64,000 nucleotides of DNA. Source: Gammaproteobacteria bacterium (GTDB lineage: Bacteria; Pseudomonadota; Gammaproteobacteria; SZUA-229). Positions 31,545 to 57,223 of the stretch are shown here, piece after piece. The position numbers and the translations under genes were made by a program. The stretch lies in the NCBI GenBank assembly GCA_026195255.1, contig JAPHSS010000022.1:16599-80598 (forward strand). Direction: 5' to 3'. The notes under the pieces were generated by a model that saw only the letters and a list, made by a program, of their open reading frames with translations, searched no databases and was not told where the DNA came from. How positions within the stretch are numbered: position 1 is the first letter of the stretch; each line of letters begins with the position of its first letter.

Positions 31545-31651
31545 AGTCTTAAGTCAGAAGTCGTGAGTCGTAAGTCAAAGCGGGTCTCCCTGCGGGAGAT
31601 GTTTTTTCTTTTGACTTACGACTTCAGACTTCAGACTTATGACTTACGACT
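31545..31651. repeat. Inverted arrays of 7-bp tandem repeats (AGTCNNN x5 / NNNGACT x6) around a small hairpin
   Basis: agtctta agtcaga agtcgtg agtcgta agtcaaa ... tctccc-tgc-gggaga ... tttgact tacgact tcagact tcagact tatgact tacgact. Confidence 0.85.
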
Positions 31652-32674
31652 TAAAGCCGTGTTTTCAAGAAACATAGCATCACCGTAACTAAAAAAACGG
31701 TACTTCTCTTTAACGGCGTGTTGATAGGTTTCCATCATTATTTTATGACCGGAGAATGCACTTACCAGCATTAATAAAGTCGATTGGGGTAAGTGGAAAT
31801 TAGTAACCATGGCATCAACCACTTTAAATTTATAACCCGGGTATATGAAAATCTGACTGTCCGCATGAAACTCTGCCAGTTCTCCATGCATTGCAGCAGA
31901 CTCAAGGCTTCTTACAGCGGTTGTACCAATTGCAATAACACGCCCACCTTCGGCTTTAGTCTGCTTGATTAACTCAACTACAGAAGCATCTACATCTATA
32001 TACTCCGCGTGCATATGATGGTCATTTATATCATCTACTCTTACGGGTTGAAACGTACCTGCTCCGACATGTAAAGTGACAAAAGCTGATTTAAGACCTT
32101 TCTTCGCCAGTTGCTCCAGCATATTCTGGTCAAAGTGAAGACCAGCTGTTGGCGCAGCCACAGCACCTGCATGTTTTGCGTAAACGGTTTGATAACGTTC
32201 CAGATCGCTGTGTTCATCAGCTCTATCTATATACGGGGGTAATGGCATATGCCCATATTGATCAAGTAATTCTAAAACACCTGTGTCACCTTCAAAGCGC
32301 AGTTTAAATAAATCCCCCTGACGCTCAAGCATTGTGGCATTTATAAATTGCTCGAGTATTAAACGAGCACCTGCCCTGGGAGATTTGCTTGCTCTAACGT
32401 GGGCTAACAGGTGATGATTGTCTAGAACTCGCTCTACGAGTACTTCAACCTTTCCACCTGATTCTTTCTGGCCATGTAAACGAGCAGGAATCACCCTGGT
32501 ATTGTTAAAAACCAGTAGATCCTTAGGTGATAACAATTCAGTCAAATCTGTAAATAAACGATCAGAAATAGTATCTCCGTTCAAATGCAGTAAACGGCTA
32601 GCGCTACGTTCTTTAAGAGGGTATTGAGCAATAAGCTCTTCAGGTAGGTGAAAATCAAAATCGGCAGTTTTCAT
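31637..32674 (-). CDS. queA: S-adenosylmethionine:tRNA ribosyltransferase-isomerase
   Basis: [64 protein letters not shown]; start ATG 32674. Confidence 0.99.
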
Positions 32675-32729
32675 GGCGCGGGAGTTTAACATAATCCCAA
32701 AGTACTGGAAAATCGGATAAGAGAATCCC

Positions 32730-32774
32730 TCTCCCATGCCTGTGCCAGACAAATGTCAGGCACAGGCCGGGAGA
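32730..32774. terminator. Hairpin downstream of the TonB-like gene
   Basis: tctccc..gcctgtgcc-agacaaatgtca-ggcacaggc..gggaga; no clear U tract. Confidence 0.45.
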
Positions 32775-32785
32775 TTAATGATTAG

Positions 32786-33742
32786 CTAGGAAGGTAAAAA
32801 CTCTATTGGGTAAGTAACTGTAACCTGCTCTACTTTCTTAGCGCCAAATTTGAATAGTTTAATACGGCTTAATAGACGTTTTTCAAGTTTAGGGTCACCC
32901 AGTTCGCTGGAAACGATTTTAACTTTAGTGACCACACCGCTTGGTGCAATAGTAATAGCAAGTACGATTTTACCCTTCAGGCCTGGGTTCTTTCGACGAG
33001 CACGGTTATATATAGAATATAATTTACTCTTATTCTGATCGAAGACAATAGTAATATCTTCTTCTGCTCGTACACCACCAGTTCGTGATTTACTCTTGCG
33101 CTCAGCATCACGGCCTTTAGCCAGTTGCCCTGAGGTTAATAAGGATTGTTTAACCTGCGTAATATCACGTTGAGATAGTTGTGTTTTACCTACACTGGTT
33201 GTGTATTCACTAGAATTAACACCGCCACTACCTTTGCTTGCATCAGCAGTTAACAGACCTTTATTATGGCTTGCTGCTTTTGTAGCAGAAGCTGAGCTAG
33301 ATTTAACTTTACCACCTACCATTGCACTTACATCTGAGGTGTCCATTAGATCAGCAAGCTCGTTACCCAGGGCAAGCAAACCTGTGTCAGCTGCTTTTTC
33401 TCGTGCTTTTTTCTGTGTTTTAGTTAATGGTTTTAATTTTTCTTTTTTCTTAGGTAATTTCTTTACCTTAGGTTTTGGTTTGACTATTGGTTTAGGTTTT
33501 GGCTTGGGTTTAACTACCTTAGGTTTCGGTTTTTCTTTTTTCTCAAGGATAAAATTAGCGATACGCTCAGGCACTGCCACTTTAGCTTCACGATCGGGTT
33601 CTGGCACATCAATGGACGATATAACAGCAGCAAATATTAAAGCAACCACGATCGTGATAGCTGTTATCAGTTTAAATTGAGAATCACCCGTTCCCTGTGG
33701 GCGCCAGCCTAATGCCAGCTGTTCGTAATACGCAGCAGACAC
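32786..33742 (-). CDS. TonB-like protein with AgmX/PglI-type C-terminal domain
   Basis: Single TM, VPERIA, KP repeats, C-terminal I..VFDQNK..LY.IYNRA.R.NP.L.GK.V..ITI.P.G.V...V.YPIEFLPS. Confidence 0.85.
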   Translation of the reverse strand: MSAAYYEQLALGWRPQGTGDSQFKLITAITIVVALIFAAVISSIDVPEPDREAKVAVPERIANFILEKKEKPKPKVVKPKPKPKPIVKPKPKVKKLPKKKEKLKPLTKTQKKAREKAADTGLLALGNELADLMDTSDVSAMVGGKVKSSSASATKAASHNKGLLTADASKGSGGVNSSEYTTSVGKTQLSQRDITQVKQSLLTSGQLAKGRDAERKSKSRTGGVRAEEDITIVFDQNKSKLYSIYNRARRKNPGLKGKIVLAITIAPSGVVTKVKIVSSELGDPKLEKRLLSRIKLFKFGAKKVEQVTVTYPIEFLPS

Positions 33743-34257
33743 TAGCTATTTTCCTCCGATGCCGGTTTTTGCATTGCTGCAAAGGCAATCTTTGTATAAT
33801 TGGCTTCACGACAGGTAGCTAATATTTTTCTTAACAACTCGTATGGAATATTTTCATCACCCATTATCGTCACCGCTTTACCTTTAATCTTTCCATCAGG
33901 GCTTTTAACTACGCGGGATTTAGATGATTGAAATTTAAGTTCCTTTTCGAGCCCGGCTATAAGTGGTGATGCATCTTGCATAATGGCGTTGATGATCGCT
34001 ACTTCTCTGCCCTGTACAAGAATACTTCGTTGTGTAACAGCAATAATTAATGTTTCTTTTGGTGCTTTAGTTGCTGTAGAAGTAGGTAAATTAATATCTT
34101 TTTTCTTCGGCAATTGATGAACATTAGATGAACTTACTAACAGGAAAAAAACCAGAATAGTAAATATATCCATTAATGAAACAAGATTTAATGCGGGCTG
34201 TTTACGACGTGCATGGTGACGTTCCATTCTTTTTGCACGTTTTGATTTTTTCATCAT
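33742..34257 (-). CDS. ExbD/TolR-family protein (retains TM Asp)
   Basis: LNLVSLMDIFTILVFFLL, LP.S, I.GD..IPY.LL..I..TC. Confidence 0.9.
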   Translation of the reverse strand: MMKKSKRAKRMERHHARRKQPALNLVSLMDIFTILVFFLLVSSSNVHQLPKKKDINLPTSTATKAPKETLIIAVTQRSILVQGREVAIINAIMQDASPLIAGLEKELKFQSSKSRVVKSPDGKIKGKAVTIMGDENIPYELLRKILATCREANYTKIAFAAMQKPASEENS

Positions 34258-34799
34258 TGTGCAGCACCTCCAATATTCGTAGTGTTTGCTGCAGGTGCAG
34301 CAGCTCCTACTAATTCAGGTGCATCACCAATGGAGATATTTGGAAATAATTCAACCGTGGTGACTTCAAATATCTGTACTATATCTGCATATCTAACTCT
34401 ATCCATAACCTTAATAAGAGTTTTATAGTTAATTTTTGGTTCTAGAAGTAATGTAATACTCTGCTCATCGGGGAAGCGGGCTTTGATTTCAACTAATATA
34501 TCGGTGAAGGTTTTCCAGTTTGTACTTTCTTCTGTTCGTGGGAAGTATTTAATGCGTCCGAGGTTAGCATCTCTTATTTCAAAACTGTCTTTACGTATAA
34601 CAAGCTCAAGTTGCAGTTTAATTTTTTCTTCCTGTTTAGCGATTGCACTTTTGGAAGGTAAATTAAGCTCAAGTACGGTTACACGTGAAAATACTGCTGT
34701 TATTAAAAGAAATGGAATTAGAATAACCATTAAATTTAAAAATGCAGTGATGTTTAATTCAACATCGTCACGTATGTGTTTTCGCCTGAGAAGTTTCAT
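34254..34799 (-). CDS. ExbD/TolR-family protein (TM Asp replaced by Asn)
   Basis: ELNITAFLNLMVILIPFLL.TAVF, LELNLP, Y..LI..MD.VR, ELFP.IS.GDAP. Confidence 0.88.
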   Translation of the reverse strand: MKLLRRKHIRDDVELNITAFLNLMVILIPFLLITAVFSRVTVLELNLPSKSAIAKQEEKIKLQLELVIRKDSFEIRDANLGRIKYFPRTEESTNWKTFTDILVEIKARFPDEQSITLLLEPKINYKTLIKVMDRVRYADIVQIFEVTTVELFPNISIGDAPELVGAAAPAANTTNIGGAAQ

Positions 34800-34852
34800 T
34801 CGTATCTCTTATACCCGTTTATTTGCTACTGGTTTTCAGATAAACCTTAAGA

Positions 34853-35470
34853 CTAGTCTTTAGCAATCAGGTTTAAACACTTCACAGCTGCCATTTCGAT
34901 GCTATCAACCAGACGTGCCGTTTTAGTAACCAGGTATGAATGAATCAGTATCAGCGGGATAGCAGCAACTAGTCCAAAAGCAGTTGTGTTCATCGCTACC
35001 GAAATACTGGCAGATAATAAATCAGCTTTTTCAGCAGGGTCAGCAGAGGCAACAGCTGTAAAGGCATCGATCAGGCCTATGATGGTACCCAGTAGGCCAA
35101 GCAGTGTTGCAATATTGGCATATGTTGCCAGGTAATGAGTTCTCTGTTCTAGTTCAGGCATCACTTCCATCATGCCTTCTTCCATTGCGGACTCTATATT
35201 TTCTCGTGGTGCATTTGTGTTTTTACGTGCAAAGCCATAATTCAACATTGTCGATAATGGTGTTTTAACCGCTTCGGTTAATTTCATTGCACGGGCATAA
35301 TCTTCAGCTTTTAACATAGGTACAAGTTGTTCCCATACCTTTTTAGTTCTACCCTGTGTTTTAGTAATATAGAGGAATCGCTCAATTGCTATGGCGAGAC
35401 CAATTGCTAATACCACCAGGATGATATACATAAATGTACCACCGTCTTGAAAAAAGCCTACAAAACCCAT
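34853..35470 (-). CDS. MotA/TolQ/ExbB proton-channel protein
   Basis: FFQDGG.FM, IAIER, N.ATLLGLLGTIIGLI.AF, IS.AMNTTAFGL..AIP; start ATG 35470 with GGGGA RBS. Confidence 0.94.
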   Translation of the reverse strand: MGFVGFFQDGGTFMYIILVVLAIGLAIAIERFLYITKTQGRTKKVWEQLVPMLKAEDYARAMKLTEAVKTPLSTMLNYGFARKNTNAPRENIESAMEEGMMEVMPELEQRTHYLATYANIATLLGLLGTIIGLIDAFTAVASADPAEKADLLSASISVAMNTTAFGLVAAIPLILIHSYLVTKTARLVDSIEMAAVKCLNLIAKD

Positions 35471-35665
35471 GTGAATCCCCTTTGAAATCAAATTTTTGCC
35501 AATTCTATAGCCTTTTACAGGCTCGGCAAACTATTAATTAGCTATAAAGTAAATATACCCGTAATTCTGACAACAGTATGTTGAAAAATACGCGCAGATT
35601 ATATGTCTACTCTATTTATAAACAGCTAAATCAGCTGCGTATAATACAGTAATAAAGAATAAAAT

Positions 35666-35923
35666 TTAGTCATCAACATCACTATTTTTAAAGAATGCGA
35701 TGGTCTTCATAAAAACCGATGAGTCTTCTACAGGTTTTTCAGTATTGTCTGTATTAGTATCAAGCTGGTTGCCGTCAATTCTGCGGCCATTAAACTCTTC
35801 ATCAATCTTGTCAATTATTAATTTACGTTGAGATCGGTATTCATCTAAACGAATATGGTTTTGATAATAATCTTTTGAGAGCTCTCTTAATTTTGTTGAA
35901 TAACTGATATCACTCATCACCAT
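35666..35923 (-). CDS. Small hypothetical protein coupled to the kinase gene
   Basis: 85 aa; TAATG stop/start overlap with ppkA; helical N-terminus L..LS..Y....I...EYR.QRK.I.D.ID. Confidence 0.75.
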   Translation of the reverse strand: MVMSDISYSTKLRELSKDYYQNHIRLDEYRSQRKLIIDKIDEEFNGRRIDGNQLDTNTDNTEKPVEDSSVFMKTIAFFKNSDVDD

Positions 35924-38634
35924 TACCTCAATTCCCTCAATACTCTAAAACCCGTTGCTATATCAGCGGAACCATTATGAGCTAGTGTAGTTGTTACGTC
36001 GCAATCTTCCATGCTTTGTTCAAAAGAGCCGCCAACTGCAACCAGTTTACGGCCCTTATCATAGACCCATTCCTGAACATTACCTACGTAATTGACTAAT
36101 CCCCAGCTATTCTGCTTACCAATATTTGTAGAAACCAGTTTACCTCCCTTTTGTATTCCACGGGTACTTAACTTGCAGTTTCTATTAGCATCAAGTTTTT
36201 TGCGTCTTGATTTTGCTGCATATACCCACTCGTTTTTAGTAGGTAAACGATATTTCTGTCCAGATTGTTTACTTAACCATTTAATGTACGCTTTAACGAC
36301 TTTAAAAGATAATTTAGATGCGGGTAACTGACTGTCACCGCCTGTTAATGGTTTGCAGCTGCTTGATTTTTTGCAGAATGCATTAAGTTCTTTAATTGAA
36401 ACTTCATACTTACCTATTGCAAAGGTCTTAAATTTGGAGTTACCGGGTATTACTACCAGTATTGGGCCTGTACCTGAATCCTTAATTTTATCTTTGCATA
36501 TTGCACGTTTTCCACGTGCACCGAGTCCAGCTAGTGACTTGTCACAGGGATCACGTGAGTCTATTTCAATAGCAGCAAGAACCCTGTTAGATTTAAAGAT
36601 ACGTAAGCTGTGTGTTTTAGCTTCACGTGCACGCTCAGGAAATGCTTTACCGGTTTGTTTGATGCAGGCTGCTAAAGAATTAATCAGTTTATTTTTAATG
36701 CTGTTATAACGGTTTCGATCAAGTCCACGTAATTTATCTATAGCCGTTTCAAGATTCCGCATATTGAGTCTACCTTGACACTTTAATTGATTGTTTACAT
36801 TATTCAAGGCAACATCAAATAACTGAGTCTGTTTCTGTTTTGCGGATATTTTCTTAGTTGTAACTTTTTTCTTGGTTTGTTGAGCAAGCATATTAGCCTG
36901 CTCGCGCTCGGCCTGTTTTGCTATTCTATTCTTGTTCTGCTCAATAGATGCGGCTATTTCTTTTGTTTTCAGGTTTAACACGTCATGATCATCAGTATAA
37001 CGTTTTGCATTTTCGATTAAATGTTTCGCTTTTCTGTATTTATAAGCTTTTATAGCTGTAGTGATTTCATCTAAATACAACTTATATGCGACCGCTTTTT
37101 GATCAATAACCCAGGGGTCTTCACCTTTTGTTAATATCAGTAAATCTTTTATATCCTTCCAGATAGAGTCTTCCCAGGGGTCAGTAAATGTAGGGTTTTT
37201 TAATAAATTTACAAGGTCTTCTTTGTAAAAATCTATGCGTATTTTTAATTCCAGTTCATTTCGAATATCAAATTCTGAATATGGATCTACTGGCTTATCC
37301 TGAATAAATAAGAAATAACCTGTTATAGCAACCGAAAGCAGTAATGCAAAAATGGTAGCCATTCTATTAGGCGCTTTAAGTTTCGGAGATATGGCTTCGA
37401 TAAATTTATCAACCGATTCCATTCTGTCTTCGCGCTTAAATGAAATAGCTTTTTCGATTGCTCGCCACTGATACTTCTTGATATTGTTAATGCGTTTTGG
37501 TTTTAATTTTTGTCTTTCTGCTTCATCAGCCGGTACTTTATTATATGGGTGTGAGCCGGTAAATAACTCATATGCAACACAACCTAGTGCATAAATATCA
37601 TCACGTATATCTGGCTCTTCACCTTCTAACATTTCTAGACTGGCATATGCCGGCGTTAAGGCGCCTAAATTACCTGCATCAAATACCGTTTTATCTTCCG
37701 GATTATCTTCTAGATGTTCAACTTTAGAAACCGCTCTGGCAATACCAAAATCAAAAACTTTTGCCAAGCCACGTTGTGTTACAAAAACATTACCGGGTTT
37801 AAAGTCTGAGTGAATTATTTTTTCAGCATGTGCGTGTGATAATGCTAATGACATGCCTTTGATGATGGCCCAGGCATCATCAGTTGGTAGGCCTGTAGAT
37901 TTGTACTGTCTTATTAATTGATCTAGTGGTTGACCATCCATAAACTCCATGGTCATAAAAACAGTGTCGCCATCTCTGTCAAAATCGAAAACGTTCACAA
38001 TATTAGGGTGAGCAATTCGTTGTGACTTTCGTGATTCTCTCTGTAGTGAAATAAAAGCCTCTGGATGTGCTTTAAATTCTTCACTTAAAACTTTTATAGC
38101 TACATAAGGGTCTCGATCCTGCGCTTCAACTTTGAGTAGATCTTTTGCTTTATAAACTATACCCATACCGCCTGCACCTAGAACACTTTCTAGTACAAAA
38201 CGATCTTTTAAAATACCATGTTCACCTACTTTCACTTCAGACGCTAAAAATTGTCCGGTTGATAAAGTTGGGTCTGTATTGTCAGGCGTTGCATTTGAAT
38301 TTGATGCAGGCGATATTCTTGTTTTATCTTCTAGTGGAGTGACAACAGGTTTAAACTGAGTGACATCCGATGTAGCGGGTTGTTTTTTTGCAGGCGCAAC
38401 TCTGGTTTTATCATCAGCTGCCTGTGCAGGTTTTCTGGGTTGCGCGACACGTGTTTTATCATCATCCACAGTTTGATTTGTGGTTTTTTTTGTTGGAGCT
38501 ATACGTGTTTTGTCATCATCAGATACATTATTATCAGGCTTTTTAACTGGTGCAATACGTGTAGCGTCATCTGAAACCGGTTTTTTGGATGCAGGTATTT
38601 TAATTTTTGTTTTATCTGATTCGTTATCACTCAT
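35923..38634 (-). CDS. ppkA: T6SS Ser/Thr protein kinase (PpkA-like) with N-terminal D-x-T repeats, TM helix and C-terminal FGE-sulfatase/SUMF1 domain
   Basis: LGAGGMG.VY, VAIK, HSDFKPGN, DFG; TM ATIFALLLSVAITGYFLFI; FAIGKYEVS, YRLPT..EW.YAA, NSWGL....GNVQEWV, GFRV. Confidence 0.88.
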   Translation of the reverse strand: MSDNESDKTKIKIPASKKPVSDDATRIAPVKKPDNNVSDDDKTRIAPTKKTTNQTVDDDKTRVAQPRKPAQAADDKTRVAPAKKQPATSDVTQFKPVVTPLEDKTRISPASNSNATPDNTDPTLSTGQFLASEVKVGEHGILKDRFVLESVLGAGGMGIVYKAKDLLKVEAQDRDPYVAIKVLSEEFKAHPEAFISLQRESRKSQRIAHPNIVNVFDFDRDGDTVFMTMEFMDGQPLDQLIRQYKSTGLPTDDAWAIIKGMSLALSHAHAEKIIHSDFKPGNVFVTQRGLAKVFDFGIARAVSKVEHLEDNPEDKTVFDAGNLGALTPAYASLEMLEGEEPDIRDDIYALGCVAYELFTGSHPYNKVPADEAERQKLKPKRINNIKKYQWRAIEKAISFKREDRMESVDKFIEAISPKLKAPNRMATIFALLLSVAITGYFLFIQDKPVDPYSEFDIRNELELKIRIDFYKEDLVNLLKNPTFTDPWEDSIWKDIKDLLILTKGEDPWVIDQKAVAYKLYLDEITTAIKAYKYRKAKHLIENAKRYTDDHDVLNLKTKEIAASIEQNKNRIAKQAEREQANMLAQQTKKKVTTKKISAKQKQTQLFDVALNNVNNQLKCQGRLNMRNLETAIDKLRGLDRNRYNSIKNKLINSLAACIKQTGKAFPERAREAKTHSLRIFKSNRVLAAIEIDSRDPCDKSLAGLGARGKRAICKDKIKDSGTGPILVVIPGNSKFKTFAIGKYEVSIKELNAFCKKSSSCKPLTGGDSQLPASKLSFKVVKAYIKWLSKQSGQKYRLPTKNEWVYAAKSRRKKLDANRNCKLSTRGIQKGGKLVSTNIGKQNSWGLVNYVGNVQEWVYDKGRKLVAVGGSFEQSMEDCDVTTTLAHNGSADIATGFRVLRELR

Positions 38635-38645: not shown

Positions 38646-39425
38646 TTATTCCTGCAATATAACTTGGGTTGAATAGGCGGCATCAGGTTCTCCCTTTACC
38701 AGTATGACAGAAACATTATCATTAGCACCATTATCAAGTGCTTTCTTAATTAATGCGTCTATAGCTTCCTGTAGAGGTAAGCTTGATAAAATCTGCGCGA
38801 TTTCATCTTTTGGTACCATGTTATATAAACCATCACTGCAAAGTAAAAAAGTGTCACCAAGTTGTACACTGAAGACATTAATATCTATATAAATATCGGG
38901 GCTTGCACCGATAGCGCGGGTTATAACATTTGAGTCTGGATGCACTTCCGCTTCTTCAGGAGTTAAAAACCCTTGTTGTACAAGTTCTTCAACCTGACTA
39001 TGGTCACGGGATAACTGTATAAAATTATTATTACGAAAGCGGTATAGTCGAGAGTCCCCTGCCCATAAGCAAATACCTACGTGGCCTTTAATTGCTAGTG
39101 TAACAATAGTGCTACCAAGTGTACGGCCGTCAAGCATGATATCAGCGTATTCGAGAATGCCGTGATTAACATCTATCAATCTATCTTCAACAGAATCAAT
39201 GAATTCATTAAGAGATGATTTATTGGTTACTTCAGAGAGTGATTTTACAATCATATCGCTGGCAACATTGCCTGCTTCATAACCACCCATGCCATCAGCA
39301 ACTGCCCAAAGTTGTATATCAGGCAGTGAGATAATAGAGTCTTCATTAACTTCTCTGACCATGCCTACATTGGTTTCTTCAACGGATCGCCAACGTATCG
39401 GGCGTCTGATCGTTGTATCACTCAT
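38646..39425 (-). CDS. pppA: PP2C-family phosphatase (PppA)
   Basis: G.VR..NED, AVADGMGG, WAGDSRLY, DHS, ITRA.G, LLCSDGL, DNVS; ATGA overlap with tagF. Confidence 0.9.
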   Translation of the reverse strand: MSDTTIRRPIRWRSVEETNVGMVREVNEDSIISLPDIQLWAVADGMGGYEAGNVASDMIVKSLSEVTNKSSLNEFIDSVEDRLIDVNHGILEYADIMLDGRTLGSTIVTLAIKGHVGICLWAGDSRLYRFRNNNFIQLSRDHSQVEELVQQGFLTPEEAEVHPDSNVITRAIGASPDIYIDINVFSVQLGDTFLLCSDGLYNMVPKDEIAQILSSLPLQEAIDALIKKALDNGANDNVSVILVKGEPDAAYSTQVILQE

Positions 39426-40159
39426 AAACCAGTTTCCAGATTTTGTAAATTGTAGGGAATTTTCCAGTCTCTTTGCTGCCACTGACCATCTAACATGGAT
39501 GCAATGCCACCTATAGGTGGTAATCCCTGACAACTAAATAACATCGGGCTAATTAATTGTGAACCTGATGTTTGCCATATACTATAACTTGATAAACCAG
39601 ATGTTAATGCGCCACTAAGTATATATGGTAGAGCGGCCTTCATCGAATCTGCGTCTGTACCTAAACCAAATAACATCGGGCCCATTTCACCCAGGTTAAA
39701 GGTTGGTTGGTAAGTTTCATTTATTGTAATATTTATCTCAGTGGCCATACTTATTAAACCGTCTGCATCAATACTGCCATCTAATGCAGATAAACATTGA
39801 GACTCCAGCTCATCAAACCACTGTGTTTGCTCTAACATGAATTTAACCGGATTCACATTAGCTTCAAAAGGTTTAACTAAACTTATTGGAAAATAACGGC
39901 CTACTCTATCAACACTGGGCATCATTAAACCGGCCCACATATTACTATCAATTACCCCGGGTGATAAAACAAATCGCCAGATTGGGCTGGTTAAATAAAT
40001 ATCCAGCCAGTCATCGCCCATTTGCTCCTGTGAGCCAGAAATAAAATGCTGCAACCATTCATCCCACGGAGTAATGAAAGATGTATTTAAATTTCGGAAT
40101 ATAAAATCACCATATCCGGGTAATTTACCATAAAGTCCTATTTGTAAATCAGAATTCAT
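39422..40159 (-). CDS. tagF: T6SS-associated protein TagF
   Basis: GLYGKLP..GDFI, WD.WLQ, YLTSPIWRF.L, MPSVDRVGRYFP. Confidence 0.93.
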   Translation of the reverse strand: MNSDLQIGLYGKLPGYGDFIFRNLNTSFITPWDEWLQHFISGSQEQMGDDWLDIYLTSPIWRFVLSPGVIDSNMWAGLMMPSVDRVGRYFPISLVKPFEANVNPVKFMLEQTQWFDELESQCLSALDGSIDADGLISMATEINITINETYQPTFNLGEMGPMLFGLGTDADSMKAALPYILSGALTSGLSSYSIWQTSGSQLISPMLFSCQGLPPIGGIASMLDGQWQQRDWKIPYNLQNLETGL

Positions 40160-40196
40160 ATTGAGTAAATCTCTTGAGTATTCTTTAAATAGTCCA

Positions 40197-43100
40197 TTAA
40201 ATGTTATTAGGGCACTTAAATGAGCCCAGTAAATTCTGACTAAACGGGTTATTCACGCTTTTCGCTTTAATCAGGTATTTTATCTGATGTTTAACTTTTG
40301 AAATCTTATTTTTTTCTCTATCACTGTTGTCAACTAATTCAGTGACAGAATAGGTTACAAGATAAACATTAGATTTTCTGGTTTTCTGTATCTTTGATCT
40401 ATCCTGTAACTTAAACCAGGCCCATGGGCCATCAAATGCTTTTTCATGTCTGTCTTCATCAAGGTCTTCAAACACAACACGCACACGTTTATTTTCATCT
40501 TCGCCTGACCAGTGTAAATCTTTCCAGAACTTGGGCCCGTGATTATAAGTGATGCGCTGATTGCCTACTTCGAGTAAAAAACGAGCATCAATTTTATCCA
40601 TTTTATATGGTTTTAACTGAAACGATACACTGGGTACTTCGGGGTTTTTTCTAAAGAATACATTCTTTATGGTTTGTGCACGTTGAATCTGTTTTAAAGT
40701 TGCAGAACTTAATCCTAGTGAGTGATTGTCAACTACACGATTAGACCAGCCCTTACGAGTGTTTATAAATGGTTTGACGAGTTCTGTGTAAAATTTATCC
40801 ATGGTTCCTGCAGGTTTAAAGAACTCACTAAAATCAAATAATGCAAGTTCATCACCTGACGAACGTTTAAGAGGGTAACGTCCCGCAAGTGCCTGTGAGT
40901 ACTGACTATAAACCTGGTTTTTCCACTCACTGTTCACATACTGATGAGCTGAAGAAAGTATAATCTTCCATGTTTCATCTGAAATAGATATTAACCAGCG
41001 TTTAACCGGATCAGGTGTTTTCTTTGAAAAACTTCTTAATGAAGTAATTGCATTGCCGGCACCGCTCATATAACGAGCTTTGGCAATTTCATATGCCTTT
41101 TTATTTGGATCAGGCGCTACTGATATTTCCCCAAGAAAATCTTGAAGTTGCTGAACTTTCTGAACAATAGAAGAAACAGGCGCAGGTTTTTTCCCGCTTT
41201 CTCTGAGCAGAACATTCATATCTCTAAATTGCTGATCTACTTTTGTGCCTTTAAACTTGTCAGCCATAAAACCAGTAACTGCGCCGGCTTTACCTTCTCC
41301 ATGATCATCATTCATATTTTGCATTAATTGTGATGATAACTGAGTGTTTGCTGCGCTTACCTGTAATATTGATAGTAATGGTGAGTACACTGGATCAGTA
41401 AAACTGGCTAATACTTCAGCAGCCTGTTTAACACTCTTGAATTCTGCAATTTTTAGAGCTTCAAAAACTTTTTTCCAGTGTGAAATATAATCAGCCATAT
41501 ACAGGCCTTTTACACGTTCACTGATTTCGTCTAAATCATCTTTAACAAAATCGACCCTGGCATTTTCATCATCAGATAAAACCCATCGTTCATTAACAAT
41601 ATCAGCAATAACCGGTGAATCTGTCGAAAGATCTATGTTGTCATAACCTTCTTTGGTGAACATATAAGGCATTAATAATGCGCGTTCTGTAGCAGGTGTG
41701 ATGGTGTAAGCATCACGTACAGCTTCGCCAAACATATTTAAAATATCAATTTTCTGGTTGAATTCTGGTTTAGTTCTAATACGACTGTAGATGCGTTTAT
41801 GTACAGGAACACGAAGTAAAGTGTTTCTTGTCTGGCTCACTACACGGCTATTAAGTTGCGATGGTTTTAATTCAAGCTCAAGCAAGGCCTCTAAATGTAA
41901 TTCCAGTTCTTTACGCTTAGATGCCTCACCTTGCATATTTTGCGTCCAGTCGGTAATAAACCAGTCTGAAATTAACTGTTTATCCATGTGCTCGACCTTA
42001 TTGAACATAAGGTATGTTCTAAAGCTGCTGTAAAGGTCACCTCCCTGGTGCCCCTTTTGAATTTGTTTTTCAAGATAGTCAATAATTCTAGGCAGGAATA
42101 GTTCTCTTAACTGAGCTTCATATGCCTCGTTTGCAGAGTCATCTACATTACCATCATAAAGTCCCATTCCAGATAACCAGGGATGTTCATCCTGATCATA
42201 AACAATGCTTGCTTTTGCTAATGCATTAAGAGTAGGCAAGACGACACGTAAATCTTTATTCCATAAGCTAAGGCGTTTATTTTCGGCATTAAATTCTGCG
42301 ATATAAGACTCAACCTCAGACATATACATATTATGTCGGGTGATGCTACCAGCCCATACGGTTAATAAACCAATTGTTACTAATGCGATAGATGCATATG
42401 CAGCACGTTGAGCCCATTTTATAATGATTTCAAATTTACGATTAGAGCCAACAAGTTCTGACTCTGGAAAGATAACTTCTCTAAATAGATTACCAAGAAA
42501 GTAACTTTTTCCCTGTGCGTGTTGTAGCTGAACATTTTCACGCCCAAAACCAAAGTTTGCAGACACCGATGACATCATTCTATCTATTGGTGTGCCATCC
42601 TGAGTACCACTGGTAAAATAAATGCCACGTAAATATGGCTGGAATTGAAATCTGTTTTTAACGAATGTCTGTTTTACAAAACTGTCGATAACGGTTTTAA
42701 GATTTTCAACCTGCTGTGGAAAACCCTGTATCGCAGCGCGACGCTTAACATCACGTTCTGCATGAATACGTGATAACTCTCTTGAATAAAGTCTTTCCAG
42801 TAACTTATTATATTCCGTGTCAAGATATTCAAAATCAGGGCTTTGAGAAGGCTTTGGTGCGTTGGGTAAAGATATACCCCATACCTGCTCTCTTTCTTCT
42901 TTACTTAAGTCTTCAAAGTAATCAGTAAAGCCGGAAGCAAGGTCGGCTTTAGTAAACATCAGGTATATGGGAAAACGAATTTCAAGTTTTTCCATTAACT
43001 CGTCAATACGAGTTCTAATAACTTTTGCGTGTTGAATTCGCTCTTCTTCAGTTTGTAAAAGTAAATCATGAATACTGATGGCGATAATAGCGCCATTAAT

Positions 43101-43769
43101 CGGGCGACGTCGACGATTTCTTTTTAGTAAAGATAAAAATCCTTCCCAGGCACTACTATCAACAACTTTATGACTATCCTGAGTTGTATAACGCCCGGCT
43201 GTATCAATGAGTACCGCTTCATTGGTAAACCACCAGTCACAGTTACGTGTGCCGCCTATGCCCTGTAACGCACCCTTACCAAATTGTTCAGCTAGTGGAA
43301 AATCAAGACTTGAATTCACTAGTGCTGTCGTTTTGCCTGAACCCGGAGGGCCAATAATTATGTACCAGGGTAGTTCGTAAAGTGCTTTTTTACTGCCTTT
43401 ACCGCTAAATTTTAGTTTCTTTAAAGTTGATAACGCATCAGAAAATCGCTGGTTCATTTGCTGCATTTCTTCTGATGTCTGATTAGATGAACCATCAAGT
43501 ACAAGTGATTCCTGATTGCTTTCAAGGTCGCCAACCAGCTCATCATTTTGCTTTTTATTCATCAATTGAATGCGAAGATTATTAAGCCCCCATAATATTG
43601 CTAGAATGATAATCGCAACCAGGCGGGCCACTACACTACCAAGGGGGGCCGAGTTGTCTTCTCCAAATTTTATCATTGGCCCAATAAACCAGACAATGAT
43701 AGATAATGCTAATAAACCGATAAGGGAAATGACAATTTTATTTTTAAAAAACTCTGCGATTTTTTTCAT
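40197..43769 (-). CDS. tssM: T6SS membrane complex subunit TssM (IcmF)
   Basis: LYELPWY.IIGPPGSGKTT, GTRNCDWWF, DTAGRYTTQD, RG.YFTSGTQ.G, GRYP, GPWAWF. Confidence 0.97.
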   Translation of the reverse strand: MKKIAEFFKNKIVISLIGLLALSIIVWFIGPMIKFGEDNSAPLGSVVARLVAIIILAILWGLNNLRIQLMNKKQNDELVGDLESNQESLVLDGSSNQTSEEMQQMNQRFSDALSTLKKLKFSGKGSKKALYELPWYIIIGPPGSGKTTALVNSSLDFPLAEQFGKGALQGIGGTRNCDWWFTNEAVLIDTAGRYTTQDSHKVVDSSAWEGFLSLLKRNRRRRPINGAIIAISIHDLLLQTEEERIQHAKVIRTRIDELMEKLEIRFPIYLMFTKADLASGFTDYFEDLSKEEREQVWGISLPNAPKPSQSPDFEYLDTEYNKLLERLYSRELSRIHAERDVKRRAAIQGFPQQVENLKTVIDSFVKQTFVKNRFQFQPYLRGIYFTSGTQDGTPIDRMMSSVSANFGFGRENVQLQHAQGKSYFLGNLFREVIFPESELVGSNRKFEIIIKWAQRAAYASIALVTIGLLTVWAGSITRHNMYMSEVESYIAEFNAENKRLSLWNKDLRVVLPTLNALAKASIVYDQDEHPWLSGMGLYDGNVDDSANEAYEAQLRELFLPRIIDYLEKQIQKGHQGGDLYSSFRTYLMFNKVEHMDKQLISDWFITDWTQNMQGEASKRKELELHLEALLELELKPSQLNSRVVSQTRNTLLRVPVHKRIYSRIRTKPEFNQKIDILNMFGEAVRDAYTITPATERALLMPYMFTKEGYDNIDLSTDSPVIADIVNERWVLSDDENARVDFVKDDLDEISERVKGLYMADYISHWKKVFEALKIAEFKSVKQAAEVLASFTDPVYSPLLSILQVSAANTQLSSQLMQNMNDDHGEGKAGAVTGFMADKFKGTKVDQQFRDMNVLLRESGKKPAPVSSIVQKVQQLQDFLGEISVAPDPNKKAYEIAKARYMSGAGNAITSLRSFSKKTPDPVKRWLISISDETWKIILSSAHQYVNSEWKNQVYSQYSQALAGRYPLKRSSGDELALFDFSEFFKPAGTMDKFYTELVKPFINTRKGWSNRVVDNHSLGLSSATLKQIQRAQTIKNVFFRKNPEVPSVSFQLKPYKMDKIDARFLLEVGNQRITYNHGPKFWKDLHWSGEDENKRVRVVFEDLDEDRHEKAFDGPWAWFKLQDRSKIQKTRKSNVYLVTYSVTELVDNSDREKNKISKVKHQIKYLIKAKSVNNPFSQNLLGSFKCPNNI

Positions 43770-43848
43770 AAATTTTTAACTATTTTTTATTTTATATTTA
43801 AATAAAGATTAAGTAGTTTAATGACTTGTCTTTACGGATTTTTTAAAC

Positions 43849-44808
43849 TTACTTTTTTTCGGGTGTTTTACGCGCAACAGTTCGCATATCTGCGATTTCA
43901 TCTAACTGTTTTACAACGGGTGAAGATGATTCATAAAGCCAGATTCTAAATCCGGAATAACTAAGAAATAATATTGCGCCGACAATGCTACCAATAACCC
44001 ACATAGGAATATAATCAGCTAGTGAGTTTCTGGTTTTACCTAAACCCCGCCAGCTTGGTGATAAAGAACGTTCATATTCACCCCTTTGACGACGTATTAT
44101 ATTAAACAGATCATCGCGCATTTGTTCAATCATATCGCGGCCACGATGTATGACTCTGTATTTTCCTTCAAACCCCAGACTTAAAAGAATATACATCAGC
44201 TCGAGAATATATAAATTCTCTGCAGGCTGTTCTTTCATACGATCGAGTATTAAAAAGAATTTTTCACCACCAGAGGTCTCATTGTGAAATACACTCAGTA
44301 GCGTTCTCTGTGGCCAGGCACTTTCACTGCCCCAGGGAGTATTCAATACAGCTTCATCAAGCGCAACGCACATGGCGTACCTGGCAGATAAAACCACTTC
44401 AGGTTTTATACCTGTTTGTTTGGCTGTGTTTTCGAAAGTTTTGAGTTCATTTACCATACGCTGATGTAACCCACCTACATCAGGGTGAGAAACAGACGTG
44501 CGTGTTTTTTCAAATACAGCAATTAAAGTTGATGCAGCATTAACTAACGGGTTGAGCCCGCTAGAAGTACTGAAGTATGCATTTGCAGAACCTGCTGGTG
44601 CCTGTGCCTGAACAGGTTGTTGCTGTTGATAAGCAGGCGGCGACTGCGGTGGCTGTTGTGCAGGTTGTTGCATTGGCTGCTGTGGTGGTTGAGCTGCTGG
44701 TGGTTGTTGAGCACCACCCCGCCCACCAGGCATCGGTCTGATAACGGTTCGATCGCCATCCACCGATGGTTGTCTAAATACTGTCTTGTCAGAATCATCT
44801 GATGACAT
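43849..44808 (-). CDS. tssL: T6SS TssL (DotU), no OmpA domain, Pro/Gln-rich N-terminus
   Basis: NPL..AA..L, ARY..C.ALDEAVL.TPWG, GGEKFF, LSLGFEGKY, LSP.W.G, C-terminal TM. Confidence 0.95.
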   Translation of the reverse strand: MSSDDSDKTVFRQPSVDGDRTVIRPMPGGRGGAQQPPAAQPPQQPMQQPAQQPPQSPPAYQQQQPVQAQAPAGSANAYFSTSSGLNPLVNAASTLIAVFEKTRTSVSHPDVGGLHQRMVNELKTFENTAKQTGIKPEVVLSARYAMCVALDEAVLNTPWGSESAWPQRTLLSVFHNETSGGEKFFLILDRMKEQPAENLYILELMYILLSLGFEGKYRVIHRGRDMIEQMRDDLFNIIRRQRGEYERSLSPSWRGLGKTRNSLADYIPMWVIGSIVGAILFLSYSGFRIWLYESSSPVVKQLDEIADMRTVARKTPEKK

Positions 44809-44868
44809 TATGTGCTCCGAATTTAAGTGCTATAAAAGCCATTTCTAAAAATCTATTTATCTAAGTTA

Positions 44869-46203
44869 TTATTGTCGAACTGCCCAGAACTCTATTTCCA
44901 GTCCTGGGAAATCACCACCAATATGTAACGCGAAACCACCTGAATGTTTTAATTCGTTCCAGAAGTCACTCTGTTGATCTAACTGGAAGTATGTAAAACC
45001 GGAATGAAATGGAATTTGTCGAGGTGCTACGGGTAAAGGTTTAATCGCAATACCTGGCATTGCCGCATTTACCAACTGACGAATTCGTTCAACCGGTCCA
45101 ATTTTAATCTGTGCAGGTAAATGCGCACGTAATGCATCTTCTGGCACATCTGCTCGGACTGATAATACAAACATAGCGGTACCAATAAGTGATCTGTCAG
45201 CAATTTCTGCAACACGAATACCGTACTTTTTCTCAACCAGATTAAGAGAAACCGCTGTTTGTTCGTAAACCATACTTAAACAGTTTCTAAGCTCGGTGAT
45301 AACGGGCGTAAAGGTGGCCTGTAAGTCATCGTGTAGATAAGCCGGAAAACTGGGTGTTCGTTTATTTTTACTAACAAAGGTCGAAAGTTCACCCACCATT
45401 TGTACTGACTCGGCAAATAAATCGACTGGATGTAAACCATTCATTTTTAAAAGATGATTTGACATGGGTTCAAGACGATTAATTAATTGCAGCATCATAT
45501 AATCTGCTACTTCAGCAGTACCGCCGCGATTAGTGTCAGCAAGCCTGCCTGCAATTGCTTCACCACGGTGATGTAATAATCCGATCAGTTCTGTTAGAAA
45601 ACCCGTTAACTTTGGTGATTTTTTGCAATCAAGGCAGGTTGCAATATAACTGTCATCTAATAGAACGTTTTTATCTTCTCGTGATTCAGCAATGCGAATA
45701 ATGCCGACACAGGCGTAACCGCTTAGATCATCTGTTTCTAACATTAACCTAAAGCGTAATTTACCCACGTGCATAGAAATATTGTCACCTGACTCATTCG
45801 ACACATCCCGGGTTTCCTGCTCGTAACTAAAGTAGCGAGCAAGACCCTGAGTGTTTTCCTCGGCAATGACATCAACTGCACCGGGACGCTTAACAGGTAC
45901 ACATACATATAAGATGCTGTTATGTGTGTTCTCAGGCACTTCGTAAACCGGTGGCGGCTCATCAACATCAGGGAAACTAAAAGGTGTCCCGTCAGGGAAA
46001 ACGCCCTTGCCTTTTATAACAGATACTTTTCCAAGCGTGAGTAACTGCTGATCAATTTCAAACTCGTGCATACCCCAACCATATGCACCATAAGCAGAGC
46101 ATTTCCCTTCCAGTAAACGCTCAAAATAACGTTCCTGTTGCTGAAAATGTTGAGGGTTTAAAAACATGCCTTCTGACCAGACAACTTTACTATCTAATGA
46201 CAT
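44869..46203 (-). CDS. tssK: T6SS baseplate subunit TssK
   Basis: VVWSEGMFL.PQHFQQQERY, G.FPDGT, KIGP, LP.APRQIPFH.GF.YF, FP.L..E.WAVR. Confidence 0.97.
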   Translation of the reverse strand: MSLDSKVVWSEGMFLNPQHFQQQERYFERLLEGKCSAYGAYGWGMHEFEIDQQLLTLGKVSVIKGKGVFPDGTPFSFPDVDEPPPVYEVPENTHNSILYVCVPVKRPGAVDVIAEENTQGLARYFSYEQETRDVSNESGDNISMHVGKLRFRLMLETDDLSGYACVGIIRIAESREDKNVLLDDSYIATCLDCKKSPKLTGFLTELIGLLHHRGEAIAGRLADTNRGGTAEVADYMMLQLINRLEPMSNHLLKMNGLHPVDLFAESVQMVGELSTFVSKNKRTPSFPAYLHDDLQATFTPVITELRNCLSMVYEQTAVSLNLVEKKYGIRVAEIADRSLIGTAMFVLSVRADVPEDALRAHLPAQIKIGPVERIRQLVNAAMPGIAIKPLPVAPRQIPFHSGFTYFQLDQQSDFWNELKHSGGFALHIGGDFPGLEIEFWAVRQ

Positions 46204-46274
46204 TATTATTCGCCAGTTTTATAATTATTATACTGATTTGCACAGATCAAAACTGTACAGGTTAATTGTACTGA

Positions 46275-46901
46275 TTAAAAAAGTTTCTTTAATTTATCCG
46301 TAGATTCTTTAGTTTTCTCAGCTGTGTCTTGCGCCTTGTCTGCACCATCTTTTGCTTTTTCAGCTCTGCTTTTAAAATCACTACCATCATCAAGGTCTTC
46401 TACTACTTCTTCATCGAAAATAAGCTCATTACCGGAAACACGAATGACTACTGAATTTCTGAAAACATTATTCGCTACCACAGGAATAATAAGCTGATAC
46501 CTGGCATTTTTGAATTCAAGGAATTCGCCATAGAGTGCAACATATTTAGTTTTAGGGTCTAATACGAAATGTTCAGAACGTGCTTTTCCAGGATTAAAAT
46601 GTTTTAATTTATGAACCGCAATCATATCTGCACCAAGCACTTCCTTGTCGCGCTCATACAGTTCTATAAAATCGGCTTTTTTCATCATCTTTTTTGCTTT
46701 TAGCTCATACATACGTATAAACAAAGGTGACGCTTTACCCATTTCATCGGGGTTAATATCGGCATCAACCTCAAATGTAATTTCCAGGTCAGTATCGAGA
46801 CCAAAATAACCTCCAACTGCACCATTCATAGACTGGCATGCAGTGAGCACAGATAATAAAAAAGTGATTAAAGTAATTTTTACTAATTGAAAGTGTTTCA
46901 T
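46275..46901 (-). CDS. tssJ: T6SS lipoprotein TssJ
   Basis: Lipobox LTAC; DINPD..G.ASP...R.YELK; ADF..LY. Confidence 0.92.
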   Translation of the reverse strand: MKHFQLVKITLITFLLSVLTACQSMNGAVGGYFGLDTDLEITFEVDADINPDEMGKASPLFIRMYELKAKKMMKKADFIELYERDKEVLGADMIAVHKLKHFNPGKARSEHFVLDPKTKYVALYGEFLEFKNARYQLIIPVVANNVFRNSVVIRVSGNELIFDEEVVEDLDDGSDFKSRAEKAKDGADKAQDTAEKTKESTDKLKKLF

Positions 46902-46908
46902 ATAATCC

Positions 46909-48978: not shown

Positions 48979-50097
48979 ATGGCGTCAGAAGAAATAATAC
49001 AGCTGGAAAGCTTATTGCAACCGATATCAGAAGATAATCCGGTTGGCGAAGATATTCGTGAAGACTCATCCCCCACATCACCCTATTACTCTATCAAAGA
49101 TGCTCGAAATGCTGCACGCGCAGCAGAACGAAATAACATGTTTGATGGTGACAGTAGTGAGGCCGATGATCAGTGGCGAAAAATTCTCGATTTAGCTCCA
49201 GATATCTTACAAAATAATGCCAAAGACCTTGAAGTTGCCAGTTGGTATACAGAAGCCCTTGTGCGTCGTTATGGCTTTCAGGGCGTGCGTGACGGTTTCA
49301 AGTTAATCCATGGCTTAATTGACCAGTACTGGGATACCCTCTACCCGCTTCCTGATGAAGACGGCGTAGAAACCCGTGTTGCATCACTTACCGGCTTAAA
49401 TGGTGAAGGTGCTGAAGGTGTATTAATTGCGCCTATTCGTAATATTGAAATTACCCAGGGCAATGAACCAGGTCCATTTAGTTTCTGGAAATATCAACAG
49501 GCGCTTGATGTAGAAAAAATTATTGATGAAGAAGCAAAAGCGGATAAAGCATCTAAATTAGGATTTAGTAATGAAGATGTTGAGCAGGCGGTTGCCGAGT
49601 CCAGTGACGATTTCTTTGTTAACTTACGTGATGACATCACCGTATCTATCGATACCTTTAAACAAATCGGTACTATGCTTGATGAATATTGCGGAATAAA
49701 TGATGCACCCCCCATTAGTAATATTGTGAATATTCTTGGTGATTGCCTGGGTGCCGTCAATCATATTGGTAAATATAAAATGCCTTCTGACGAGGCAGCA
49801 GAAGGAAACGCTGATGAAGCAGATGATGATTCAGCTGCGTCTTCTGAGTCGGGCGGTCAGGTGCAACAGGCATCAGGTCCTGTTAGGTCGCGGGAAGATG
49901 CATTTAAAAAACTCATAGAAATTTCTGAGTTTTTCCGTAAAACAGAACCACATTCGCCAATTTCATATATACTAATGCGAGCGGTAAAATGGGGCGATAT
50001 GCCACTGGATGACCTGATGAAAGAATTAATACCAGACTCTTCTGCAAGAGACTTTTATGGTTCTTTAACAGGTGTTAAAACTGAAGACGAATATTAA
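48979..50097 (+). CDS. tssA: T6SS TssA (ImpA family)
   Basis: LL.PIS.DNP.G.D.R, KDL....W, YWD.LYP, SREDA...L....FF..TEPHSP...L.RA..WG. Confidence 0.95.
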   Translation: MASEEIIQLESLLQPISEDNPVGEDIREDSSPTSPYYSIKDARNAARAAERNNMFDGDSSEADDQWRKILDLAPDILQNNAKDLEVASWYTEALVRRYGFQGVRDGFKLIHGLIDQYWDTLYPLPDEDGVETRVASLTGLNGEGAEGVLIAPIRNIEITQGNEPGPFSFWKYQQALDVEKIIDEEAKADKASKLGFSNEDVEQAVAESSDDFFVNLRDDITVSIDTFKQIGTMLDEYCGINDAPPISNIVNILGDCLGAVNHIGKYKMPSDEAAEGNADEADDDSAASSESGGQVQQASGPVRSREDAFKKLIEISEFFRKTEPHSPISYILMRAVKWGDMPLDDLMKELIPDSSARDFYGSLTGVKTEDEY

Positions 50098-50119
50098 TAA
50101 AATTAAAGAGGACTAAATC

Positions 50120-52128: not shown

Positions 52129-52148
52129 TACTTAAAACTATGTGTTAT

Positions 52149-52186
52149 AAGAAACCGTATCTAACCAGATACGGTTTCTTTTTCTT
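52149..52186 (+). terminator. Rho-independent terminator between tssC copies
   Basis: aagaaaccgtatct-aacc-agatacggtttctt followed by tttctt. Confidence 0.85.
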
Positions 52187-52221
52187 ACAGTACTAGAAAC
52201 TTAATTCAAATCGGTATATGA

Positions 52222-53718: not shown

Positions 53719-53757
53719 TGTTGTTAACAGGAAAACGATTTAATTAGGTTATAAATT

Positions 53758-57162: not shown

Positions 57163-57223
57163 ATTTTTTAAAAATTAATTATAACTTAACATATAAAAAT
57201 AAATATAAGAGAAGGAAATTGAG

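Follow-up and report, generated by a model that had tools for sequence, protein, structure and literature searches.

The window examined here is a stretch of 64,000 nucleotides from a gammaproteobacterial genome (G000:C30:16599-80598; G000 is the source genome, other G numbers are genomes of its family, and L numbers are loci). It carries a type VI secretion system (T6SS) gene cluster, and directly behind the kinase end of the minus-strand arm lie exbB, two exbD genes and a TonB-like gene, which resemble a proton motor of the Agl/Glt kind. The same four genes were found behind the T6SS kinase gene ppkA in distant species, and they are probably a working part of the T6SS control system and not a chance neighbour.

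Genes were called from the open reading frames (ORFs) of the window and Pfam, while start codons and overlaps were read from the sequence. The order tagH-tssJKLM-tagF-pppA-ppkA-orf85, gap, exbB-exbD-exbD-tonB_C, queA, given in a preliminary description of this DNA, was borne out. The genes of the motor and of the T6SS cluster are:

32786–33742, minus strand: TonB-like gene, 318 aa (Pfam TonB_C, 29.2 bits)
33742–34257, minus strand: exbD2, 171 aa (Pfam ExbD, 68.8 bits)
34254–34799, minus strand: exbD1, 181 aa (Pfam ExbD, 56 bits)
34853–35470 (ATG) or to 35491 (TTG, longest ORF), minus strand: exbB (Pfam MotA_ExbB, 100 bits)
35666–35923, minus strand: orf85, small acidic protein, no family
35923–38634, minus strand: ppkA, 903 aa (Pfam Pkinase and C-terminal FGE-sulfatase)
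38646–39533, minus strand: pppA (Pfam PP2C)
39422–40159, minus strand: tagF (Pfam TagF_N)
40197–43769, minus strand: tssM (Pfam)
between tssM and tagH, within 38646–48633, minus strand: tssJ, tssK and tssL (Pfam)
46909–48633, minus strand: tagH (Pfam FHA and T6SS_FHA_C)
48979–59911, plus strand: tssA, tssB, tssC (two copies), tssE, tssF, tssG and clpV, the plus arm of the T6SS (Pfam)
31637–32752, minus strand: queA, directly after the TonB-like gene and followed by tgt, yajC, secD and secF
60503–63289: pyruvate phosphate dikinase gene, next after clpV in this window

The start of exbB was placed at the ATG at 35470 because a GGGGA ribosome site precedes it and the start is conserved in the genus. 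Counted from this codon, the gap between orf85 and exbB is 195 bp (35471–35665), as first reported. The orf85 ATG overlaps the ppkA stop, exbD1 and exbD2 overlap by 4 bp, and exbD2 and the TonB-like gene share 1 bp. A threonine phosphorylation set lies within the T6SS cluster (one-helix Ser/Thr kinase, PP2C phosphatase, FHA protein and TagF, by Pfam). The absence of a TonB-dependent receptor, tolB/pal or tetratricopeptide repeat (TPR) gene next to the motor was also confirmed, none being found among the window ORFs scanned (17977–63289).

There is no hcp, vgrG or PAAR gene in the window's T6SS cluster. The two tandem tssC paralogues (50638–52128 and 52222–53718) are about 40% identical, and both are kept in the relatives that were mapped, including Aliikangiella, Teredinibacter and Saccharophagus.

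Motor Proteins

One TolQ/ExbB-like and two TolR/ExbD-like genes stand in a row (Pfam), as in Agl/Glt systems. The TonB-like protein has about 24 cytoplasmic residues and no FHA domain (Pfam and translation). It combines a membrane helix at the N-terminus with a spacer rich in Lys and Pro and, C-terminally, a TonB_C domain of the AgmX/PglI (GltG/GltJ) type. It passes the NCBIfam model for the AgmX/PglI C-terminal domain (NF033768) with 73.8 bits (cut-off 40), and misses the full-length models, scoring 51 against a cut-off of 650 for the GltG equivalog and likewise not reaching that of GltJ. This match, and the position of the closest outgroup motors in clusters of the order TPR-TPR-TPR-small ORF-exbB-exbD-exbD-tonB, bear out the Agl/Glt-like identity that had been proposed for the motor.

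The best NCBIfam model for ExbB is TolQ (70 bits, below the cut-off of 221) and for the ExbDs is TolR (30 against 127); the ExbB and ExbD equivalog levels are both missed (54 against 206, and 21 against 153). The motor is read here as neither a Ton uptake system nor Tol-Pal. The membrane-helix Asp of ExbD2 (LMDIF) is present in 48 of 48 relatives, and ExbD1 has Asn at the corresponding position (FLNLM), as do 46 of 51 relatives, with Asp in the other five. The Asn in ExbD1 and the constant Asp in ExbD2 suggest a stator that has two unlike ExbD subunits and one proton-carrying residue.

Conservation of the ppkA–Motor Linkage across Species

The linkage was surveyed by scanning bacteria and archaea, each species represented by one genome, with an alignment of PpkA periplasmic regions taken from seven members of the family. 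Of 145 confirmed stretches, the best 80 were taken with 10-kb flanks, and the query proteins were mapped onto them by tblastn. A PpkA match was present in 74 of these 80 loci, and the 66 with at least 1500 nt downstream were assessable. In 49 of the 66, exbB is encoded on the ppkA strand no more than 2 kb downstream, and where the contig extends far enough, two exbD genes and the TonB-like gene come next, so that the linkage of a T6SS ppkA with exbB-exbD-exbD-tonB is a recurrent one. Its frequency varies with the identity of PpkA to that of the window:

PpkA identity at least 60%: motor in 6 of 7 loci
PpkA identity 50–60%: motor in 19 of 20 loci
PpkA identity 44–50%: motor in 23 of 23 loci
PpkA identity 36–44%: motor in 1 of 16 loci; a ShlB-type outer-membrane gene in the motor's place in 11 of 16

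At a PpkA identity of at least 44%, the order ppkA(-orf85)-exbB-exbD-exbD-tonB is found in 48 of 50 loci. The two exceptions (L055 and L062) belong to genomes G013 and G016, both of which have the motor at another site, which in G016 is the clpV end of the same T6SS. Chance juxtaposition, which the preliminary description had regarded as a real alternative, is rejected by these figures.

Carriers of the linkage include the isolates Aliikangiella marina, Teredinibacter sp. ISS155, Saccharophagus sp. K07 and Psychromonas sp., and metagenome-assembled genomes (MAGs) labelled Cellvibrio, Marinimicrobium, Marinagarivorans, Kangiellaceae, Cellvibrionaceae, Thiohalomonadaceae, Acidiferrobacterales and Wohlfahrtiimonas. 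Two short carrier contigs were binned as Bacteroidetes and Flavobacteriales, and both labels were judged untrustworthy. ORF families following the TonB-like gene recur in four loci at most, which means that the conserved block stops at the motor. The linkage to the T6SS is thus kept across distant species with unrelated genes after tonB, as would be expected of a conserved accessory, and this comparative evidence supports the earlier suggestion that the motor is a T6SS accessory. From these comparisons, the motor is likely to be a functional accessory with a tie to PpkA and the T6SS.

The same flanks bear on whether the genes could be an ordinary TonB-ExbB-ExbD uptake system, for example one that re-imports a metal-binding protein secreted by the T6SS. 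The domain families (MotA_ExbB, ExbD and TonB_C) would fit such a role, but no TonB-dependent receptor is found among the scanned window ORFs, no gene family recurs after tonB, the scores fall far short of the ExbB and ExbD cut-offs, and the TonB domain belongs to the AgmX/PglI type, which makes this explanation very improbable. Three mechanisms had originally been offered for the motor, namely envelope sensing into the kinase, positioning, and re-import of a secreted metallophore; the last has the weakest backing of them, given the lack of any recurrent gene family downstream of tonB.

Beside this T6SS, a gene for a POTRA beta-barrel of the ShlB type also recurs in L021, L008, L032, L093 and L087, and in the Microbulbifer/Endozoicomonas loci L111–L129, at times accompanied by a DUF5649 repeat protein.

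Motor Arrangements in the Family and Descent of the Motor

The family of the source genome was searched in full (97 genomes), and 19 of these have a match to the TonB-like protein at E ≤ 1e-60; TssG (PF06996) is likewise present in 19 of the 97. In a tree of concatenated motor proteins, the window's motor falls into a clade of 15 genomes (class W), apart from the other Glt-like motors of the family. The motors of class W, and one further motor lying outside the tree (G081), are arranged as follows:

G000, G001, G002, G003, G005, G008 and G011 (one genus) and G078 (another genus): motor directly after ppkA-orf85
G081 (genus of G078; outside the tree): motor directly after ppkA-orf85, contig ending in exbD2
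G016, G024 and G027: motor convergent with clpV of the same T6SS subtype
G013 and G018: motor flanked by ubiI-like and ahpC/mscS/gcvT genes, T6SS on a different contig
G023 (88% complete): motor behind a TPR set (TPR-W, described below), no TssG found
G089: contig too short to place the motor

At the contig end of G081 (L041, G081:C13:1-470), the exbD2 match is in two pieces in different frames, which may reflect a frameshift or an assembly error.

The preliminary description held that relatives with the motor next to queA and no T6SS would speak against an accessory role, but this pattern is not what they show. The motor follows ppkA, and within the genus queA adjoins it in no more than 5 of 7 genomes; a GGDEF gene intervenes in G011, and sulfate permeases take the place of queA in G003.

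A wider tree (43 rows, LG+G4, from a quick search with Shimodaira–Hasegawa-like approximate likelihood ratio (SH-aLRT) support only) places all ppkA-linked motors, except for a long-branch Cellvibrio row, in one clade of 34 rows with an SH-aLRT value of 99. Its sister is a clade of TPR-linked motors from the family. Nested within the ppkA-linked clade are those motors of the family that are detached, convergent with clpV or linked to TPR-W, so that linkage to ppkA came first and the other arrangements arose from it later. Two independent juxtapositions, one giving the layout after ppkA and one the layout convergent with clpV, were considered and rejected, as the wide tree derives the second from the first. 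The TPR-linked motors of G026, G030, G032, G109 and G110 were rejected as orthologues of the window's motor, since they lie outside its clade. The motors of G078 and G089, which belong to another genus, are nested within the diversity of the window's genus, and together with the position of the motor directly after ppkA-orf85 in G078 and G081, this fits a transfer of T6SS and motor as one block.

The orf85–exbB Gap

The product of orf85 has no match in Pfam or NCBIfam, and an Atlas search gave two unnamed clusters. In 33 of the 49 motor-bearing loci of the survey, a homologue separates ppkA from exbB. A signal-peptide ORF that precedes exbB in TPR clusters was considered as a counterpart and rejected, as the two are 8–17% identical and the other ORF has a signal peptide and a motif of its own. 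Between the orf85 stop and the exbB start, relatives show an operon-like spacing, with a median of 102 nt (n = 39, mostly 35–200); the 195 bp of the window is at the long end.

The preliminary description had allowed that the gap might hold its own promoter. One conserved promoter-like site was found there (comparisons of upstream regions were made by eye throughout):

35502–35529, minus strand: TTGCCG-16 nt-TAGAAT, 32 nt before the exbB ATG

A block of the form (T/A/G)TGC(C/T)G-N16-TA(G/A/C)AAT, about 30–40 nt before the exbB start, is kept in 10 of 10 upstream regions examined from the ppkA-linked clade, and outside it the gap sequence diverges among ppkA-linked relatives. A similar site is found upstream of detached class W motors and is absent from the TPR-linked motors of the sister clade. 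A scan of 32500–36200 gave 6 promoter-like sites where 10.3 were expected, and 2 terminator-like sites where the expectation was 3.0. As these totals do not exceed chance, only the conservation of the one site across relatives counts as support for a promoter, and on that evidence the motor probably has a promoter of its own. The scan gave no terminator-like site on the minus strand behind orf85; a weak hairpin there (CAGCTGATTTAGCTG) is without conservation in relatives.

The promoter-like block (35500–35535 in the window, and its counterparts in relatives) includes a short direct repeat, CTATAAAA..CTATAGAAT in several relatives, which could be an operator.

TPR Sets

In contrast to Glt-like clusters whose TPR genes stand with the motor in a single region, no TPR gene was found among the scanned window ORFs. 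The source genome nevertheless has three homologues of the large TPR protein, on contigs C30, C67 and C47:

G000:C30:119930–124797: TPR-C, consisting of C469, TPR953, TPR218 and gltX, just before the contig end; no motor
G000:C67:8448–14020: TPR-W, consisting of TPR636-TPR920-TPR197-small secreted ORF behind a response regulator and a histidine kinase; no motor
G000:C47:38400–48300 (L016): class B cluster, a second and complete Glt-like cluster that encodes a TonB-like protein of 451 aa

The TPR genes that had seemed to be missing are therefore present. In relatives they lie at the other end of the T6SS, and here TPR-C is on the contig of the window, about 43 kb past clpV. TPR-C follows clpV via three small genes (C605, C278 and C165) in G001 and G011, and directly in G089; in G000, about 40 kb separates clpV from C605-C278-C165-TPR-C. 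Orthologues of TPR953 at least 51% identical are found in 10 of the 97 family genomes, and 9 of the 10 have T6SS genes; in the tenth, G066 (84% complete), no T6SS genes were detected. None of the loci read has a motor of its own after TPR-C.

The same association is found beyond the family. TPR953 orthologues (42–50% identity) are on the T6SS contig in 4 of 5 distant carrier genomes tested. The order clpV-C469-TPR953-TPR218-gltX occurs in Aliikangiella marina and Teredinibacter sp., and a Cellvibrionaceae chromosome has clpV-C469-TPR953-TPR218 with gltX not detected; the set is convergent to clpV in Saccharophagus sp. and on another contig in Psychromonas. The full conserved layout has the TonB-like gene, exbD, exbD, exbB, (orf85), ppkA, pppA, tagF, tssM, tssL, tssK, tssJ and tagH on one strand, and tssA, tssB, tssC, tssC, tssE, tssF, tssG, clpV, C469, TPR953, TPR218 and gltX on the opposite strand. 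In L078, L083, L084 and L087, the TPR-C set and ppkA-exbB-exbD-exbD-tonB point away from each other, tssM, tagF and pppA are absent from the interval, and TssF is located elsewhere in these genomes.

With its two halves bracketing the structural genes, the system could also be a mechanical helper that uses proton-motive force (PMF) to help the TssJLM complex or the firing tube through the outer membrane and the peptidoglycan, to shift the apparatus or hold it in place, or to close the envelope again once the tube has fired. Such a helper would account for the same conservation data, and TolQR-type and Agl-type motors are described in Luciano et al. (2011, PMC3169522) as performing mechanical work on outer-membrane partners. 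It is ppkA, however, and not tssJ, tssL or tssM, that neighbours the motor most closely and most persistently, and in the four loci just mentioned ppkA, motor and TPR set stand together away from the structural genes. We therefore consider a mechanical helper unlikely.

The other TPR sets have their own surroundings. In G023, the same TPR-W set precedes the motor, with genes for DUF3570 and a beta-barrel outer-membrane protein between them; the TPR-W locus of the source genome (L019, G000:C67:3876-14020) has DUF3570 and AhpC genes beside it. The class B TonB-like protein is 37% identical to that of the window over the shared part, and matches of the class B type (36–39% identity, open frames of about 450 aa) were seen in many of the family genomes sampled, pointing to the presence of class B in most of the family.

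Further TPR-C-like arrangements were noted in the family. TPR-C is divergent from queA-tgt-yajC-secDF in L045 (G016:C30), so the queA locus borders a different part of the system in a second genus. In the divergent T6SS of L031 (G111), C469-like and TPR953-like genes lie between a DUF5649 protein gene and hcp-vgrG-DUF6931-PAAR, convergent to clpV. A gene with a Tle1-like phospholipase domain and a DUF2931 gene are convergent to the TPR-C end in L036 and L050 (G011 and G008).

PpkA Kinase

PpkA has a kinase domain (residues 148–392), one membrane helix near residue 445, and a periplasmic part made up of a helical region and a domain resembling formylglycine-generating enzyme (FGE). An AlphaFold model of residues 441–903 (predicted local distance difference test 86) has helices at 14–247 and an FGE-like fold at 273–461. 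Foldseek matched this periplasmic model to PvdO, FGE and PorK, a ring protein of the type IX secretion system (T9SS; chains 9myj_B, 9mzu_A and 9ots_A), and weak matches to the GldJ and GldK models were found with NCBIfam. Eight Cys of the periplasmic domain are invariant in 45 sequences. A complex prediction for the periplasmic part of PpkA and residues 100–318 of the TonB-like protein gave no answer (score 0.00, mark 0.32) and weighs neither way.

The cytoplasmic N-terminus of PpkA (residues 1–140; window 38200–38634) contains about five copies of a short repeat, D-D-K-T-R-I/V-A-P followed by K-K.

The relation between kinase and motor might run the other way, with PpkA phosphorylating a Glt-like component and so switching on a separate surface process (transport, movement or polymer export) together with the T6SS. 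This would suit the position of ppkA next to the motor even away from T6SS structural genes, and a link of this protein family to phospho-threonine signalling is provided by the cytoplasmic FHA domain of Myxococcus GltG (Table 1 of PMC3169522). The TonB-like protein of the window, with its short cytoplasmic segment, lacks such a domain, and the large conserved periplasmic domain of PpkA, with its invariant Cys, looks like a receiver. Control of the motor by the kinase is accordingly a distinctly improbable arrangement.

A Proposed Role for the Motor

On balance, the observations are best explained, in our view, by a Glt/Agl-like envelope complex that is an integral accessory of this T6SS subtype and is coupled to PpkA, an explanation towards which we lean with modest confidence. 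In such a complex, an ExbB/TolQ-like channel would hold two unlike ExbD/TolR-like subunits, one of them with the proton-carrying Asp, and this stator would drive the TonB-like protein, the C-terminal domain of which may reach across the periplasm. The motor would be one half of a Glt-like core complex, and C469-TPR953-TPR218-gltX the other half. The module may be an ancestral and conserved accessory of one gammaproteobacterial T6SS subtype, with PpkA as its tightest partner, and would act as the envelope-side device of the threonine-phosphorylation pathway. A signal of contact or of envelope state would then most likely be passed to PpkA, the task performed by TagQRST in Pseudomonas aeruginosa, and this input could decide when and where the T6SS is built. 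What the comparisons establish is which genes and domain families are present, the persistence of the block, the monophyly of the motors and where the TPR set lies; we infer that the proteins form one complex and that it touches PpkA, as well as the direction of signalling. A role as input or positioning device for PpkA is tentative, at somewhat below an even chance. The fullest version, in which the whole Glt/Agl-like machine is an ancestral part of a widespread gammaproteobacterial T6SS subtype and, as a sensor of contact or envelope that generates force, turns PpkA on, is slightly less probable again.

Several points weigh against an integral accessory coupled to PpkA. The motor is detached from the T6SS cluster in G013 and G018 and is kept in G023, where no TssG was found, so that it is able to leave the cluster, and its tie to the T6SS does not hold in all lineages. 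With a conserved promoter-like site of its own, it could be regulated apart from the T6SS arm. A motor-less TPR-W set is present, unlinked, in the source genome, and the same motor could serve it. No TPR953/TPR920-like gene was found at E ≤ 1e-5 in G078, which is 99% complete and has both T6SS and motor, suggesting that the TPR half is not always needed. The linkage counts overstate independence, many survey loci being from MAGs and the species being related, and the limits of the wide tree given above apply to the inferred order of events.

These points could be accommodated if the synteny were inherited without a role in the T6SS, the motor travelling with the island while it serves the motor-less TPR-W and TPR-C sets in an unrelated envelope process. 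The promoter-like site, the motor behind TPR-W in G023 and the unlinked motors of G013 and G018 would all agree with this, as would the presence of two motor-less TPR sets in one genome; in Myxococcus, AglRQS serves both Glt and Nfs, according to PMC3858216. A linkage in 48 of 50 loci, across several named families and with a different right flank each time, is nevertheless hard to hold without selection; TPR-C is itself tied to the other end of the T6SS, and both exceptions keep the motor. Inherited synteny of this kind is improbable, and the integral accessory coupled to PpkA is preferred.

If the proposal is correct, the module would be a proton-powered trigger for the T6SS and would give gammaproteobacterial Glt-like core complexes a first function, adding a PMF motor to the list of T6SS accessory modules. 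It bears on two questions, the role of these complexes and the source of envelope input to PpkA in T6SSs that have no TagQRST, and the genetic link makes both testable in Aliikangiella marina, Saccharophagus, Teredinibacter and Psychromonas, which are culturable and harmless bacteria of sea and soil.

Comparison with Known Systems

No earlier description of a link between such a motor and the T6SS was found in print, most subscription journals and the gene tables of PMC3169522 being outside the scope of the search. The words ExbB, TonB, TolQ, TPR and 'proton motive' are all absent from a 2026 review of T6SS accessory factors, and the literature search found no later work that ties Glt-like core complexes of Gammaproteobacteria to a process.

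The nearest relative is the Agl-Glt core complex of Myxococcus xanthus (aglR, aglQ, aglS, gltG, gltC, gltD and gltE), as described in Luciano et al. (2011, PMC3169522). The two have in common one TolQ-like, two TolR-like and one AgmX/PglI-type TonB_C protein, three TPR proteins with a small secreted ORF, and paralogous copies within one genome. They differ in that the halves are here at two ends of a T6SS cluster, with the motor after the ppkA kinase, and in that the TonB-like protein is without an FHA domain and one ExbD without the Asp. Outside Deltaproteobacteria, the seven core genes were reported to lie in a single region, with a function stated to be unknown in 2011 (PMC3169522).

The second comparison is with TagQRST-PpkA-Fha1-PppA of the P. 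aeruginosa H1-T6SS, where ppkA, pppA, tagF and an FHA protein likewise belong to the T6SS cluster and PpkA is acted on by a periplasmic domain of the FGE-like kind (PMC13713981 and PMC13584744). In the model presented in PMC13713981, the FGE-domain protein TagR, held by the lipoprotein TagQ, binds and dimerises the periplasmic domain of PpkA after membrane damage. In the window, the FGE-like domain is fused to PpkA, and a proton motor and TPR proteins stand in place of the sensor module; no tagQ, tagR, tagS or tagT is present, every ORF of the window's T6SS cluster being assigned to another family.

TonB-ExbB-ExbD and Tol-Pal (TolQRA) belong to the same superfamily and share the logic of an inner-membrane proton channel that energises a periplasm-spanning protein. 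The motor differs from them in its two unlike ExbD genes and in scores far below the ExbB, ExbD, TolQ and TolR equivalog cut-offs, and Pfam found no receptor, tolA, tolB, pal or ybgF near it among the scanned window ORFs.

A more distant parallel is offered by the PorLM (GldLM) motor of T9SS and gliding together with the PorK-PorN ring. PorLM is proton-driven. There too, a motor acts on a periplasmic partner with an FGE-like fold, and the likeness is one of analogy only, as the motors have no sequence relation and both phylum and output differ.

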